A stretch of DNA of 40,822 bases, taken from NCBI GenBank assembly GCA_019242655.1, contig JAFAVH010000115.1:1-40822 (forward strand), in the 5' to 3' direction. Both the position numbers and the translations under genes were made by a program. Positions 1 to 40,822 of this stretch are shown piece after piece (the first letter of the stretch is position 1; the number at the start of each line of letters is the position of its first letter). Under the pieces are notes generated by a model. The model did not search any database, was not told where the DNA came from, and worked only from the letters and a program-made list of their open reading frames with translations. The stretch comes from Methylobacteriaceae bacterium (lineage in GTDB: Bacteria > Pseudomonadota > Alphaproteobacteria > Rhizobiales > Beijerinckiaceae).

Positions 1-2
1 AA

Positions 3-290
3 GATCTGGGCGAGGTCCTGGCTTTGCTTGATGGCTTCATCGGGCTCGATACGGGCACGACGCATTTTGCCGGGCGGGTCGGCGTGCCGACGCTGGCGCT
101 GTTCGGCACGGCGCACGATCCGAGGGAATGGGGGCCGGTGGGCGACAAAAGCGCTTGGGCCGCGATGGACGCGCCGTGTCATCATTGCTCGATCTCCGAA
201 GCCCGCTTCTGCGCCCTCGATGTCGCGTGCATGAGCAGCCTTCGACCGGAACAGGTTTGGCCGCTCGTCGAGCAGCATTTGCTTCAATGA
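3..290 (+). CDS. Glycosyltransferase family 9 (heptosyltransferase-like), C-terminal fragment; the 5' end lies outside the window
   Basis: The frame is open from the window edge. It reads FIGLDTGTTHFAGRVGVPTLALFG (GT9 C-terminal donor-binding signature), then a four-Cys tail PCHHCSISEARFCALDVAC. Stop TGA at 288..290. Confidence 0.8.
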   Translation, partial: DLGEVLALLDGFIGLDTGTTHFAGRVGVPTLALFGTAHDPREWGPVGDKSAWAAMDAPCHHCSISEARFCALDVACMSSLRPEQVWPLVEQHLLQ

Positions 291-327
291 TGTTGGGTTC
301 ACGCAGCGCGCTGGAGGGCGCTCGTCC

Positions 328-35903: not shown

Positions 35904-35937
35904 GCCGCCGCCGATTCGCACAGCGAGCGGGGCGAAA

Positions 35938-38900
35938 TCAAGGCATTGCGGCAGCCGCTGCGGCGAAGGTGTGCTCCGCCGGTCTCTTGAGCCGATCAGC
36001 GGGATCGTGCTCGACGGTTCCGCGCTCGTGCCGGGCAAGGCGCCCGACGAGCGTCGAGACATTCTCGGGGGGGAGGCCCTCGCCGCCGCCCATACTGCGC
36101 ACGATGCGCGCGGCCATCGCCGTAACCGTCGCGCCCTCCGAAAGCGCGAGCAGCGGCACGCTGATCCCGAAGCGCTGCTCCACTGCGAGGCGGAGCTCGA
36201 CCGCCATCAGGCTGTCCATGCCGAGCTCGGCGAGCGCGCGTTGCGGCTCGATGCGATCGGTCGCAAGCTTCATGATCCGCGCGACCTCTTCGATGAGCAT
36301 CGTCGCGACATGCGCCTGCGCTTCCTCGGGCGAAGCGTTCGCGATCAGCGCGCGCAGGTCGATCTCGGCGCCCTCGTCGTTCGCTGCGCCGCCAATCTCT
36401 TCAAACAAGGTTGTCGCGAGCAGCGGCAACCGTCCACGCAAGGCGCTCCAGCGCACCGGCGCGAAACCCGCGACCGGCGCCCCGGTGGCGAGCAGCGCCG
36501 GCAGCGCGTCGAGTGCTTCGCGTGCGCTCAGATGCTGGCCGCCGAGCTGACGTGCGAGCAAATCGCTCACGCCCTGCTCACGCGCGAGATAGCCGGCGTC
36601 ACCGATCGGGCCCCATTGCACGGCGAGCGCAGGCAGCCCCTCGGCATGGCGGTGCTCGGCGATCGCCTCGATCGCGGCGTTGGCGGCGACGTAGTTCGCC
36701 TGGCCGGGGTTTCCGAGCGGCGTCGTCACCGAGGAGAAAAGAATGAAGAGATCGACAGGATCGCTTCGTGTCAGCCGATCGAGCAGCTCCGCGCCTCCGA
36801 GCTTCGGCCTTAATGCGTTGGCGAAGCGCTCGGCGTTGAGTTGCATGAGCAAGCCATCGTCCATCGCCACGGCCGCATGAACAACGCCACCGATCGGCGC
36901 CTGCTCGTCGCGGATCGCGGCGAGCGTTCGCGCGAGAGACGCTTCGTCGGCGACGTCGCAGGTGTAAGGACGGGCATCGACAGCGGCGAACCTCAACTCC
37001 GCGAGCAACTCATTCGCACCCGGCGTCGCCGGCCCCCGGCGCCCGATCAGCGCGAGATGGCGGGCGCCGTGCGCTGCCAGCCACCGCGCCGTTTCCTTGC
37101 CGAAGCCGTCGAGACCGCCAGTCAGGACAATCGTCCGATCGCTCGGTAATGAGAGCGGCGGCGGAACCAATTTCGTCGGCGGGAGTGTCGCGCCGCGCTC
37201 GATCACGATCTTGCCGATATGTCCCGAGCCCTGCATCAAGCGGAAGGCCTGCTCGATCGCAGTTAGGTCGAAGCGTCGATAGGGAAGGGGCCGCAGCGCT
37301 CCTTCGCGCAGCATTGCACCGATCTCGGCGAGCAGGCGCGCGGCGAGCGCGGGCCGCTTGACTGGAAGTTGGTCAGCATCGACCGCAAAGTAGCTGATGT
37401 TATGGCGCAGAGGCCGCAGCCCGATCGCGCTGTTCTCGTAGAAGTCGCGCTTGCCGAGCTCGAGGAAGCGACCGAAGGGCTTCAACAGCGCGAGGCTGCG
37501 CCGCATCGCCTCGCCGGCGAGCGAATTGAGGACGACATCGACGCCCTCGCCGTTCGTCAGCCGCATAACATCGTCGGCGAAGCTCAGCGAACGGCTGTCG
37601 AGCACCGCCTCGACACCGAGGTTGGCGAGCAACGCGCGCTTTGGTTCCGAGCCGGCGGTCGCGAAGACGCGCGCGCCACGAGCCTGGGCGAACTGGATCG
37701 CTGCGAGGCCGACCCCGCCGGCGCCACCGTGGATGAGCACGGTCTCGCCGGCCTCCAGCTGGGCGAGCTGCCCCAGTGCATAGGCGACGGTGAGAAAGAC
37801 GACCGGCACGGTCGCCGCCGAGGCGAAGTCCATGCCTTCGGGAATGACGAGCGCGGCATGCGCGGCGGTCACGGTGTGCGTGCCGAGCGAGGCTGGCGCG
37901 AACGCCATGACGCGGTCACCCTGCGCGAAGCCGGCTACCTCCGCGCCGACGGCGGTGACGATACCCGCGCATTCGAGCCCGAGCGTGGGGCCGGCATAGC
38001 CGTCGAGCAGCGCCTCGTCGGGCAGCAGGCCCATTGCCCACATCACGTCGCGGAAGTTGAGGCCGGTCGCATGGATCTCGATCGCGATCTCGTTGGCGGC
38101 GGGTTGCGCCGGCGTCGCAGCCTGCCAGGCAAGGCTGTCGAGCAAGCCGGGACGTTCGATCGAGAGACGCAGGGCGTCGGGCGCGGCGGCCGCAAGGCTC
38201 GGCAAGCCGGTGCGCACACGCGTGACGGATCGGCCGGCGGCAGACCAGCTTATCTCGTCTTCGCCGTCGGGCGCCGCAAGCTCGGCGGCGGCGCGTGTGG
38301 CCGCTTCGTCGCGGTCGAGATCTCGATCCAGCCGGATGATGCGGCAGCGCAGGTTGGCCGCTTCGTTGACGAGCACGCGGCGTGCTCCCGTCAGTGCTGC
38401 CGCATAGGAATCACCACTGGCTTCGGCCGTCACGATGAGGCTGATTTCGCGCTCAACTTCGTCGGTAGCCATCACCGCTACTTGAGCGATGATCGCGAGC
38501 GCTTCTGCGAGTGACGCGTGCGTGGCGTCGAACAGGATCGCGATCTTGCGTGCGGCACTGTCGGCGGGCAGCAGTGCATCCGCTGCAACGATCGTTGTCG
38601 CGCAGGTTGCGGCAAGCCTCGCGCGCAGCCTTTCGCCGAGGGGATGCTCACCCGCGCCGATGAGCAACAGATCCTCGATCGGGATAGGCTGCTCCGACTC
38701 GAGTGGCGTCGATGCCCGGGCAGCGATGATGCCGATGGGCCATAAACCGGTCCGCAGCGTTCGCGCCTCAGCGTCTTGGAAACCAGCGGCGTCGAGGGCG
38801 GCTTGCCATTGCGGGCCGCTCCGGAACGCCGTGTCGGCCCGCATCAGCGACCAGGCTCGGGCCGGCAGCGGCTCCGCCATCAACACTATCCCGTTCGGTG

Positions 38901-40822
38901 CGAGCAATGGTCGGATCGCGTCGATCGTCGCCCCGCTATCGCCGAAGCTCAGCGCGTGCAGCCCAATGATCAAATCAAACGCGCCGGTATCCTGCGCATC
39001 TTCCCAAGCGATCGCCCTTGCAGTTGATCGGGTCGCCAGCGCGTCCGTGAGCGCCGGAAGATCGTCGGCGTCGGTTGCGGCAACGATCCGCGCCCGCTCG
39101 CCGAGGCGATCGGTCAAACGCTGCGTCAAGCGCCCACGGCGCGCGCCGATCTCGAGGATGCGAAGCGGGCGACCGATCGGCAGCGATACGCTGGCTCGCT
39201 CGACGGCATCGATCAATCGGTCGGCCGCCGCCGTTCCGCTCGGCGAGTCGTAGAGCAACTGCTCCCACAGCGCAGGCGCCACCAAGGCTGCAGCCGCGCC
39301 GCCCAGTATCATTTCGGGAAGCGCCGCCGCTCCGGCCGCCAACAGGGCGACATCCGCACCGGCGGTCGGCGTGTCGAAGAAGAGGCTCTGCAGGATCGCG
39401 GAAGCGGGTGGCAGTTCGTCGCCGACGGCCCAAGAACCGCTTTCGTCCTGCTCGGCCAAGCCGTCTGCCTGCAGCCAACCAAGGAGGACAAGCGCAAGTG
39501 CGCGGCCCTGCGGCGTGGTCGGACCAGCCCCTAGCATGACGTCGATGTTGATGCGTCCGTTAGGCGCGGCGCTGCGCAGTGCTTCGAGCGCTGCCGCCGA
39601 GGCATAGGCGTCGGCGAGCAGCGCCGCTTCGCTCTGGCCTTCCGCCGGAATGCTCGCGAGGATTTCGGCCGTCGAGGGCAGGGGAAGGGCCGCACCGTCG
39701 GCGCTCGGCACCGTCACCGGGCGGAAGAACGGATCCTTCCCCAAGGTCTTGCCGCCGAGCGCAACGCGCACGAACCAGCATTCGAGCAGTTCGGCAACGA
39801 TCCGTCCATCCGCTGCGATCAGCGCCACGTCGGCGCGGATAGAGCGCGGCCCAACGCGGGTCAGCCGCAGCTGCGCCGAACGCGGTGCGCAGGCTTCGCG
39901 GTCGAGCAGCCGGATCCGACCGAACCGCCATGGCATCACGCCGGTGCCGCTGCCGAGCTGCCCCGCCGCCAGCGCGAGCAAACCTTGGAGCGCGCCATCG
40001 AGCAGGTTCGGCGCGATCAGATAACCGTCGCCGAGATGCACCTGCTCCTCGAACAGCACGATCGCCGATTGCGGCGATGCGATTTCCACCTGCGTGACCG
40101 TGCGGAACGCCCCGCCATAGTCGAGGCCCAGATCGTGCGCGAGCGCATAGAGCCTCGATCCAGGCAAGATACGCTCCTTCGCGCCGATCTCGCCAAGATC
40201 CCAATCAACCGCGGTACCTGCCTCCTCGCGTGCGGCGAGGCGGCCGCTCATATGTACGGTCCAAGGTTCGCGCTCGAGCCGCGGACGCGAGGCGAGGGTG
40301 AACTCGTCGAGCGCGGCGCCGATGCGGAAGTCCAATTCCCGCAGCACGCCCGGCTCGATCACCAGCGCACGCCCGATTTCGAGATCGATCAGTTCGAGTG
40401 CGGCCGCGGTAGGGAAGCGCGCGCCTGCCGCCGCCAGCGCCATATCGATGAGCGCGGCGGCGGGCACCACGATCGCGCCGCCGACCTGATGATCGGCAAG
40501 CCACGGCTGGAGCTCGACGCCGATATGGCGCGACCAGCGATCCGTATCGCCACCGCCGCGGCGTACGCCCAGCAGCGGATGCTCGTCGCGCTCCGTGACC
40601 GGATACTCGTCCTCCTGCGTCGGCGGCAGCCAGAAGCGTTCGCGCTGCCACGGGTAGCGCGGCAGGCCGGAAAGATCCTGCGATCCATGAAAGGCAGGAT
40701 TGCCACGAATATCGGCGCCGGCGACATGGCAGCGCGCGAGAAGCTCGGCAACGGGGTCGCCCTTCGAGGGCCGGCGCGAAAGGCTGGTGACGACGCGGCC
40801 TTCGACGTCCGATGCGCGTAAC
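35938..40822 (-). CDS. Type I polyketide synthase (RkpA/WcbR-like), 3' part; the N-terminus (KS-AT) lies beyond the window
   Basis: The frame is open to the window edge (no stop from 40470 to 40821). [13 protein letters not shown] is the post-AT linker. DH domain: EHPLLG ... [13 protein letters not shown], His codon 40489..40491. MT-like motif ILEIGARRG at 39133..39159. ER: HGGAGGVG at 37708..37731. KR: LTGGLDGFG at 37099..37125. ACP: LGMDSL, Ser codon 36211..36213. No thioesterase domain. Confidence 0.92.

Follow-up and report, generated by a model that had tools for sequence, protein, structure and literature searches.

A predicted ABC-transporter-dependent surface-glycan locus joining ADP-heptose genes, TPR-GT9 proteins and an RkpA/RkpG-type lipid module

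What does a bacterium assemble with a locus in which heptosyltransferase-like enzymes and the genes for ADP-heptose adjoin a capsule exporter and a polyketide-type lipid module? The question is raised by contig JAFAVH010000115.1 (assembly GCA_019242655.1), a metagenomic contig of which the whole stretch analysed, 40,822 nt, is called the window here. We drew up the gene map from the list of its open reading frames (ORFs) and scanned the ORFs with Pfam and NCBIfam models; throughout, the cut-off of a Pfam model is its gathering score, and that of an NCBIfam model is NCBI's curated score. All gene classes listed in an initial annotation of this DNA were recovered by these scans. The answer that we favour, and hold to be fairly probable, is that the window carries most of a locus with which a Sphingomonas-like alphaproteobacterium would make an ABC-transporter-dependent (Kps/rkp-type) surface glycan, and that this locus is laid out in three parts. 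The locus belongs to the ABC-transporter-dependent capsules with a lipid module of the rkp/wcb type, and incorporation of heptose into its product is likely.

The evidence for this reading starts from a block of nine genes in the right-hand arm, listed here from the window end inwards and followed by hldD, which lies beyond the block (bit scores are given against the cut-off of the model):

35938-40822 (window end), minus strand: RkpA-type reducing type I polyketide synthase (PKS), C-terminal ~1,630 residues; Pfam DH, MT-like, ER, KR and acyl carrier protein (ACP) domains
34554-35903, minus strand: RkpG-type alpha-oxoamine synthase (AOS); Pfam Aminotran_1_2, the longest ORF reaching 36062
31418-32635, minus strand: conserved glycosyltransferase of family GT4 (Pfam), sharing 8 nt with kpsM; identity in the Sphingomonas blocks 59-61%
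30610-31425, minus strand: KpsM-type ABC-2 permease; Pfam ABC2_membrane, NCBIfam KpsM E=8e-28, 98 bits against 300
29397-30575, minus strand: KpsE-type inner-membrane/periplasmic export protein (PCP-3); TIGR01010 E=4.4e-75, 253 bits against 437.5
28799-29407, minus strand: GmhB, heptose 1,7-bisphosphate 7-phosphatase; PRK08942 E=3.8e-45, 153.7 bits against 178
27612-28862, minus strand: AGE-family epimerase/isomerase; Pfam GlcNAc_2-epim E=7e-56, start placed at 28802 by the gene caller
26158-27615, minus strand: HldE, bifunctional heptose-7-phosphate kinase/heptose-1-phosphate adenylyltransferase; TIGR02198 356.2 bits against 345, TIGR02199 182.9 bits against 181.5
24221-26101, minus strand: TPR-GT9 paralogue d (GT9d); Pfam GT9 and TPR; last gene of the conserved block, at the same position in the related loci L009 and L012
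22779-23762, plus strand: HldD, ADP-glyceromanno-heptose 6-epimerase; TIGR02197 E=1.2e-111, 372.8 bits against 274.6

The order PKS, AOS, GT4, KpsM, KpsE, GmhB, AGE, HldE, TPR-GT9 is shared by the window, Sphingomonas nostoxanthinifaciens (CP082839.1) and Sphingomonas sp. BIUV-7, and the block is 45-74% identical to those of the two genomes. The intergenic distances are -8 nt (GT4/kpsM), +40 (kpsM/kpsE), -11 (kpsE/gmhB), -4 (gmhB/AGE), -4 (AGE/hldE) and +56 (hldE/GT9d). The overlaps and short gaps from GT4 to HldE therefore tie heptose nucleotide synthesis to the exporter transcriptionally and probably also translationally. That the parts form one system, as initially annotated, is thus borne out both by the 4-11 nt overlaps that join kpsE, gmhB, AGE and hldE and by the recurrence of the block in two Sphingomonas genomes. 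For the GT9, PKS and AGE proteins, every close homologue with a named source is from Sphingomonas, which, together with the identities to the two genomes, makes the source a sphingomonad or a near relative; the sequence is also present in a metagenome assembly of soil type. The lists of GT9 and PKS homologues presumably have nine contigs in common, which suggests that linkage of GT9 and PKS genes is common among these homologues.

The lipid module is of the rhizobial kind. The PKS ends about 50 residues after its ACP, with no thioesterase, and its full-length homologues have 2.4-2.5 thousand residues in the order KS-AT-DH-ER-KR-ACP. The AOS probably starts at 35903: this gives 449 residues, as in its relatives, and lies 35 nt past the PKS stop codon. 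Its closest match in the PDB is serine palmitoyltransferase (SPT; E=3.5e-69), with the lysine that binds pyridoxal phosphate aligned. With two genes of Sinorhizobium meliloti taken as RkpA and RkpG for reference, identity is 49.7% between the AOS and RkpG, and 47% between the PKS and the C-terminal half of RkpA. The two proteins are direct orthologues of that pair, in agreement with their first description as a thioesterase-less reducing PKS next to an oxoamine synthase of the rkpA/rkpG kind. We considered and rejected a role of the AOS as a housekeeping SPT of sphingolipid synthesis, as the alphaproteobacterial SPT model gave 214 bits against 670 and the gene is orthologous to the rhizobial RkpG. 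In S. nostoxanthinifaciens, the genes upstream of the PKS include a KpsS-like one (Capsule_synth), one for a short-chain dehydrogenase/reductase (SDR) and one of the sulfatase family. The S. meliloti RkpG orthologue is followed, in the same order, by a gene for an SDR and one annotated 'capsule biosynthesis protein'; from the rkp-1 map we take these to be rkpH and rkpJ.

The donor pathway is of the ADP type, as first proposed, since HldE and HldD pass their equivalog cut-offs; GmhB (E=3.8e-45) stays slightly below its own. Between gmhB and hldE, an AGE-family gene is found in all three conserved blocks, that of the window and those of the two Sphingomonas genomes (L010, 22602-23762; L012, 22650-23837). 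The nearest solved relative of the AGE protein is cellobiose 2-epimerase (E=2e-16, PDB). Several relatives are fusions. The gene called 'rfaE2' on a Rhizobium plasmid (L016, 8944-11616) joins AGE, kinase and adenylyltransferase domains, and this AGE-HldE fusion is flanked by GT4, HldD, GT9 and GmhB-like HAD genes; three close AGE homologues are GmhB-AGE fusions (P0301, P0335 and P0344); and S. meliloti pSymB encodes a fusion with a ManC-type nucleotidyltransferase in front and AGE behind. Classical bifunctional ManC-type enzymes have a mannose-6-phosphate isomerase domain in the position where the pSymB protein has AGE, and AGE-fold enzymes interconvert ketoses and manno-configured aldoses. 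The AGE enzyme probably replaces GmhA, so that it would give D-glycero-D-manno-heptose, or its 7-phosphate, from sedoheptulose(-7-phosphate); alternatively, it might act as a C2-epimerase on a heptose. Our literature search found no paper that ties AGE enzymes to heptose. If true, the proposed replacement would be a new way into heptose nucleotide synthesis and would also bear on the breadth of ADP-heptose producers, ADP-heptose being an agonist of innate immunity.

The likely users of this donor are the TPR-GT9 proteins. The initial annotation had counted five GT9 genes; four are full length, and of the fifth, which the window start truncates, the last 95 residues remain. Besides GT9d, they are listed here with the protein encoded directly behind GT9b:

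3-287, plus strand: fragment of a fifth GT9 gene, last 95 residues; Glyco_transf_9 E=6.9e-9, with a Cys-rich tail
7052-9121, plus strand: TPR-GT9 paralogue a (GT9a); Pfam GT9 and TPR; 57% identical to a gene in locus L003 of a Sphingomonas metagenome-assembled genome (MAG)
9118-11178, plus strand: TPR-GT9 paralogue b (GT9b); Pfam GT9 and TPR; 47% identical to the neighbouring L003 gene
11179-12507, plus strand: 442-aa protein (hyp442), all-helical and TPR-like; no Pfam match; starts right after the GT9b stop codon
20491-22590, minus strand: TPR-GT9 paralogue c (GT9c); Pfam GT9 and TPR

GT9a and GT9b overlap by 4 nt. The four complete proteins have 626-699 residues, with TPR at the N-terminus and a C-terminal Glyco_transf_9 domain that scores 37.9-61.4 bits against a cut-off of 22; the full-length architecture is TPR, beta-sandwich and GT9. 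The paralogues share just 40-44% identity with one another, which indicates that the expansion is old. In an alignment of 41 family members, the motifs DQLGD (with the catalytic Asp), HxGARxxxxRW and GNDSGPKH are invariant, and profile-to-PDB alignments line them up with D13 of WaaC, the region around its K192 and its DSGxxH motif. We searched the PDB with a profile of the catalytic domain alone, as the whole-protein GT9-TPR profile was swamped by TPR matches; WaaF (E=6e-8) and WaaC were matched, and TibC was not at E<=1. The AlphaFold2 model of GT9d (pLDDT 84.7) consists of TPR (residues 6-107), a beta-sandwich (136-241) and a GT-B core (275-626). Foldseek searches with this model placed 3TOV, WaaF and WaaC on top, followed by bacterial O-GlcNAc transferase (OGT; XcOGT, E=8e-10) and then by TibC (E=8e-8).

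The donor motif is followed by four cysteines (CxxC-x8-C-x5-C; C590, C593, C602 and C608 in GT9d), which are invariant in the 41 aligned full-length members and missing from WaaC and WaaF. The fragment at 3-287 has a similar four-Cys tail with different spacing. This Cys4 motif is probably a structural metal site. Its position recalls the iron finger of TibC; a search with the Cys-rich C-terminal segment alone (96 residues) gave no match to TibC at E<=10. The best named NCBIfam matches of the GT9 domains are LPS (lipopolysaccharide) heptosyltransferases I-III, all far under their cut-offs. From the donor motifs and the adjacent HldE, HldD and GmhB genes, we infer that the GT9 proteins use ADP-heptose as their donor. 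A 'GT9' match that turned up in a paper on the Escherichia coli K15 capsule was discarded, as the enzyme in question is in fact a GT99.

The hyp442 protein probably belongs with these enzymes. A homologue, 32% identical, occupies the same position in L003, and a HMMER search of the full library found 142 representative relatives. In some of these the domain is fused to GT9 (P0419 and P0468), AGE (P0462), FkbM (P0415) or GT4 (P0482), and hyp442 corresponds to the N-terminal 410 residues of P0074, a homologue of GT9d (hhalign E=3.8e-45). Its AlphaFold2 model (pLDDT 89.3) is all alpha, with only weak matches to TPR solenoids. The protein is unrelated to an unassigned 535-aa protein of S. nostoxanthinifaciens. 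It reads as a detached adaptor domain of heptosyltransferases. TPR modules also occur on other transferases of the related loci: L003 encodes a protein with TPR and RgpF/GT4/GT2 domains (3103-7065), a weak match to the GT9-type TPR overlaps the start of an RgpF/GT2 gene in L009 (17229-21161), and the start of a glycosyltransferase of an Acidisoma plasmid (L015, 2984-5152) matches the TPR region of GT9c. TPR therefore looks like a docking device of the whole locus rather than a feature of GT9. Polymerases of ABC-dependent capsules are known to require TPR domains to elongate the linker (PMC11666461), and the TPR-like adaptor family of the window points to scaffolded glycan assembly.

The relatives also show which export genes lie at the edges of the locus. 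The KpsM protein matches the solved KpsM structure 8TSH_C (E=5.7e-17, PDB), and the annotated pair of kpsM and kpsE is present in the window, with NCBIfam E-values of 8e-28 and 4.4e-75, respectively. In L003, a KpsT-like gene and KpsD (Poly_export and SLBB domains) lie at the far end of a variable region, which is bounded on one side by kpsT-kpsD and on the other by hldE, the start of the conserved block. This region contains three or four TPR-GT9 genes, HldD, the hyp442 homologue, FkbM and the TPR-RgpF-GT4-GT2 protein. In S. nostoxanthinifaciens, the variable region codes for deoxy- and amino-sugar enzymes and for polymerase-like RgpF/GT2/GT4 proteins, with no match to HldD. In S. nostoxanthinifaciens, BIUV-7 and Rhodopila, the PKS has Capsule_synth genes directly upstream, on the side where the window ends. 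By analogy with these relatives, the three-part layout suggests that kpsT and kpsD are to be found past the left end of the window, with kpsS past the right. Strain specificity resides in the left arm. Among the loci sampled, the lipid/export module is joined to ADP-heptose genes and GT9 only in sphingomonads. The Rhodopila genome has PKS, AOS and Capsule_synth genes and no heptose genes, and the Acidisoma plasmid has kpsDTME, two genes for 'capsular biosynthesis proteins', a glycosyltransferase, AOS and SDR genes, and no PKS or heptose genes. The Acidisoma glycosyltransferase encoded after the 'capsular biosynthesis protein' genes is 46% identical to the GT4 of the window, which is a candidate primer or 'transition' transferase.

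The remaining features are the following; all but the last lie in the left arm or between the arms:

328-2256, plus strand: FkbH-type enzyme (FkbH_N, HAD-IIIC and FkbH); TIGR01686 E=6e-90, 301.7 bits against 146.65; Pfam FkbH_N
2313-3905, plus strand: WcbI-family protein with C-terminal TPR, copy 1; Pfam WcbI 55.0 bits against 29.2
3958-5526, plus strand: 522-aa protein (hyp522); no Pfam or NCBIfam match even at E<=1
5483-6433, plus strand: GT90-family glycosyltransferase; Pfam Glyco_transf_90 E=1e-19
6520-6762, plus strand: stand-alone 80-residue ACP with a WDSIKH serine motif, recognized from its translation; NCBIfam ACP models E=3e-7, below cut-offs
12554-13003, plus strand: NUDIX hydrolase of the YffH/AdpP (ADP-sugar/GDP-mannose pyrophosphatase) type; TIGR00052 E=3.4e-25, 88.7 bits against 79.55
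13079-13993, minus strand: 304-aa possible methyltransferase (weak); only Methyltransf_23 E=0.031 and Methyltransf_11 E=0.092
14302-15894, plus strand: WcbI-family protein with TPR, copy 2; Pfam WcbI 51.3 bits against 29.2
15985-17214, minus strand: FkbM-family methyltransferase; TIGR01444 E=5.4e-16, 59.3 bits against 37.7
17788-18390: truncated DUF535 (VirK-like) ORF
about 19694-20497: remnant of an IS110-family transposase
20203-20448: IS630/DDE_3 fragment
33007-34467, plus strand: WcbI-family protein, copy 3; Pfam WcbI 63.7 bits against 29.2

The modification set of the initial annotation is thus present with FkbM, three WcbI-family proteins, FkbH, ACP and GT90; its second methyltransferase is a weak candidate (E=0.03). 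Our analysis added the AGE-family gene, the conserved GT4, the NUDIX hydrolase, the 522-aa and 442-aa proteins and the remnants of insertion sequences (IS).

From these genes we infer each chemical step of the favoured pathway, the acceptors and the heptose content of the polymer, as follows. Anchor, primer and sugar supply would come from the conserved arm (20.5-40.8 kb), together with part of the exporter. There, the RkpA-type PKS would build a reduced acyl chain on its own ACP, and the RkpG-type enzyme, on the model of SPT chemistry, would release it by decarboxylative condensation with an amino acid, yielding a sphingoid-like amino-lipid. This lipid might then be reduced and decorated by enzymes encoded outside the window. 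The AGE enzyme, in place of GmhA, would act with HldE, GmhB and HldD to make ADP-L-glycero-D-manno-heptose, and GT4 and GT9d would lay down the first sugars. The strain-specific arm, which comprises 1-17 kb and GT9c, would extend a heptose-containing chain by means of GT9a, GT9b, GT9c, the truncated GT9 and GT90, with the TPR modules and the free 442-aa adaptor holding the enzymes together or onto a lipid-linked acceptor. FkbH presumably charges the ACP with an acyl or glyceryl unit derived from glycolysis, the three WcbI proteins together with FkbH/ACP might add O-acyl or O-glyceryl groups, and FkbM would add methyl groups. The NUDIX enzyme could hydrolyse ADP-heptose and thereby trim the ADP-sugar pool. 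The product would be exported by KpsM and KpsE, with KpsT and KpsD encoded beyond the window. The 'heptan-like' polymer proposed at first is a guess, if a plausible one for this strain.

A number of points weigh against this reading. Heptose in the exported polymer is a prediction from gene content, and heptose need not be the sole substrate of the GT9 proteins. Neither the window nor the conserved blocks of L009, L010 and L012 contain an SIS/GmhA gene, and its substitution by AGE is putative. Export had been assigned to an ABC/Kps route; KpsM and KpsE stand, while no KpsT (ABC ATPase), KpsD (outer-membrane polysaccharide export protein, OPX) or KpsS/KpsC (Capsule_synth) was found among the window ORFs, and the route is completed only by analogy with the relatives. 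The scores of KpsE, KpsM and GmhB lie under the equivalog cut-offs, and the KS-AT half of the PKS is outside the window, beyond its end. IS remnants and a low-GC stretch split the two arms, and the locus may hence be partly decaying or recently rearranged. The absence of LPS from the source organism of this metagenomic contig is assumed from its affinity to Sphingomonas. Finally, the N-terminal beta domain and the Cys4 knuckle of the GT9 proteins resemble those of TibC-type enzymes, TibC having an N-terminal beta-barrel (PMC4358343).

This last resemblance leads to a different explanation, namely that the TPR-GT9 proteins are protein O-heptosyltransferases similar to TibC/AAH, or to TPR-bearing OGT or FlmG, that the ADP-heptose genes supply protein glycosylation, and that the Kps and PKS genes make a separate product. 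Their architecture of TPR, beta domain and GT-B is OGT-like, with Foldseek matches to XcOGT (8e-10) and TibC (8e-8), and TPR domains commonly bind proteins. However, kpsE forms one operon with gmhB, AGE and hldE, which are probably coupled to it in translation, and no gene for an autotransporter, a flagellin or another repetitive substrate was found in the window or its relatives. The GT9 profile matches WaaF/WaaC and not TibC at E<=1, the cysteine spacing (CxxC-x8-C-x5-C) is unlike that of TibC (C339/342/358/370), and the presence of the same TPR/adaptor modules on GT2/RgpF, GT4, FkbM and AGE enzymes fits a scaffold for glycan assembly. We therefore regard protein heptosylation as quite unlikely. 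A role of the GT9 and ADP-heptose genes in the LPS inner core or O-chain of an organism that does have LPS, with the capsule locus as a mere neighbour, appears very improbable. The best named matches of the GT9 domains, far below cut-offs, are indeed LPS heptosyltransferases I-III, and the taxon is presumed, but wherever a close homologue of the GT9, PKS or AGE protein is named, it belongs to Sphingomonas, a genus that has glycosphingolipids instead of LPS. In addition, the GT9 proteins have about 650-700 residues with TPR and beta domains, compared with roughly 320-350 for WaaC/WaaF, the heptose genes are embedded in a kps operon, and the Pfam and NCBIfam scans revealed no waaA, lpx or O-antigen ligase genes in the window.

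The place of heptose within the glycan can also be read differently. It might be confined to a conserved linker or core: GT4, GT9d and the ADP-heptose genes would build a short primer, similar to an LPS core, on the PKS/AOS lipid, and the polymer would consist of other sugars, with the extra GT9s adding a few branches. GT9 enzymes classically act on 3-deoxy-D-manno-octulosonic acid (Kdo) or heptose next to the lipid, and KpsS-like Kdo transferases adjoin the PKS in relatives. Since the conserved block includes the heptose genes along with one GT9, heptose may be part of a conserved linker or primer as much as of the polymer. It may even be mainly a linker component, since the variable genes of S. 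nostoxanthinifaciens point to other sugars and include no HldD match. In the window, however, four further GT9 genes, HldD and the NUDIX hydrolase lie in or next to the variable part, which is more than a single linker residue needs, and three or four GT9 genes accompany HldD in L003 as well; restriction of heptose to the linker or core is thus unlikely. A bolder interpretation, tentative and on the whole rather unlikely, takes the product for an LPS-like molecule made by an unrelated route, with a PKS/AOS sphingoid-type lipid, a GT4/GT9 heptose 'core', ADP-heptose made independently of GmhA by way of an AGE-fold isomerase of sedoheptulose(-7-phosphate), a TPR-scaffolded and strain-variable chain (here heptose-rich and O-acylated/methylated) and Kps instead of Lpt export.

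The closest known systems include the rkp genes of S. meliloti. Its rkp-1 region (rkpU, rkpA, rkpG, rkpH, rkpI, rkpJ and kpsF3) and the rkp-3 export genes share with the window a thioesterase-less reducing PKS followed by an oxoamine synthase and a Kps-type ABC export, and the SDR (RkpH), sulfatase-family/lipoteichoic acid synthase-like (RkpI) and KpsS-like (RkpJ) types, absent from the window, which stops within the PKS, are also found beside the PKS in the Sphingomonas relatives. In contrast, rkp-1 has no ADP-heptose, GT9, AGE or GT4 genes, whereas kpsM and kpsE are in the same operon as the heptose genes here. The rkp-1 region is thought to make the lipid carrier of the K antigen, and the rhizobial K antigens covered in the same review contain Kdo, glucuronic acid and pseudaminic acid derivatives (PMC4881576).

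Heptose capsules provide the second comparison. The wcb locus of Burkholderia pseudomallei contains the lipid genes wcbR, wcbS and wcbT, WcbI and a GDP-6-deoxy-heptose pathway. Like the window, it combines a heptose capsule, ABC/Kps-type export, a lipid module of PKS and acyltransferase type and WcbI (partly after PMC4104973 and PMC4691232). It is set apart, by description, by its use of GDP-D-glycero-D-manno-heptose via WcbL-type kinases and of non-GT9 transferases, where the window has HldE/HldD (ADP, L,D-heptose) and GT9. WcbI itself comes from a heptose capsule locus, binds coenzyme A and needs an unknown partner (PMC4104973). The WcbI domains of the window have TPR tails and are distant from the solved B. 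pseudomallei WcbI (phmmer E=0.36), their membership being given only by the Pfam profile PF18588. The heptose capsule of Campylobacter jejuni also differs, with a GDP donor and other glycosyltransferase families.

The GT9 proteins themselves are most similar to WaaC and WaaF of LPS synthesis in sequence and fold, sharing the GT-B fold, the catalytic Asp and both donor motifs (HxG..(K/R)W and NDSGxxH). Unlike these, they are twice as long, with TPR at the N-terminus, a beta-sandwich and a Cys4 knuckle at the C-terminus, and they are encoded as five paralogues in a capsule operon of a lineage assumed to be devoid of LPS. TibC/AAH likewise use ADP-heptose outside LPS and have a beta domain before GT-B and a Cys4 metal knuckle in the C-lobe (PMC4358343), but there is no sequence match, the cysteines are spaced differently, TPR is found here and no autotransporter gene lies nearby. 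In the group 2 capsule polymerases Cps3D/Cps7D and Bcs3, TPR is needed to extend a conserved glycolipid linker, and transition transferases bridge anchor and polymer (PMC11666461). Those enzymes have TagF-like or other folds, phosphate-containing polymers and a poly-Kdo/phosphatidylglycerol anchor, in contrast to the GT9 proteins and the presumably PKS-derived anchor of the window.

No paper describing such a locus was found in full-text literature searches, as the initial annotation had supposed when it called the combination undescribed. The combination is not unique, though: homologous, uncharacterised loci are common in Sphingomonas, and those in sequenced genomes carry automatic annotation only. 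If the favoured reading is true, this would be a capsule or glycolipid system fed by ADP-heptose and GT9, of which we found no report, and its occurrence in a lineage without LPS would separate 'LPS core' enzymes from LPS. The Sphingomonas block, in which gene-level evidence suggests that lipid genes, first transferases and exporter are co-transcribed, offers a second, genetically compact setting, in culturable strains, for the question of the RkpA/RkpG (WcbR/WcbT) lipid. The AGE/GmhA question and the interpretation as an LPS substitute are the points that could raise the importance of the locus.

Some further observations concern individual genes. The stretch between the arms (17200-20500) has 56-57% GC, compared with about 63% elsewhere, and its truncated DUF535 ORF and IS110 and IS630 remnants are marks of an earlier insertion or rearrangement within the locus. 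A scan of 12.4-24.3 kb for promoters and terminators gave sites no more numerous than in shuffled sequence. A 169-aa ORF predicted by the gene caller (23722-24231, plus strand) overlaps the end of hldD and has a faint DUF120 match (E=0.003); it may be spurious, and L003 has no ORF of at least 180 aa at this position. The NUDIX gene closes the left-arm operon. The free ACP is read in a frame different from that of the longest ORF at its site, and we discarded that 132-aa ORF (6465-6863) as the gene after GT90 because its translation is Arg-rich nonsense. Nothing in the fetched loci is related to hyp522, which does not resemble the 535-aa S. nostoxanthinifaciens protein either; the 3' end of the hyp522 gene overlaps the GT90 start by 44 nt. 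In WcbI copy 3, the domain begins at about residue 133, and the true start is probably later than 33007. Copies 1 and 2 share 77% protein identity, far more than any pair of GT9 paralogues (40-44%), and appear to be a recent duplication within the variable arm.

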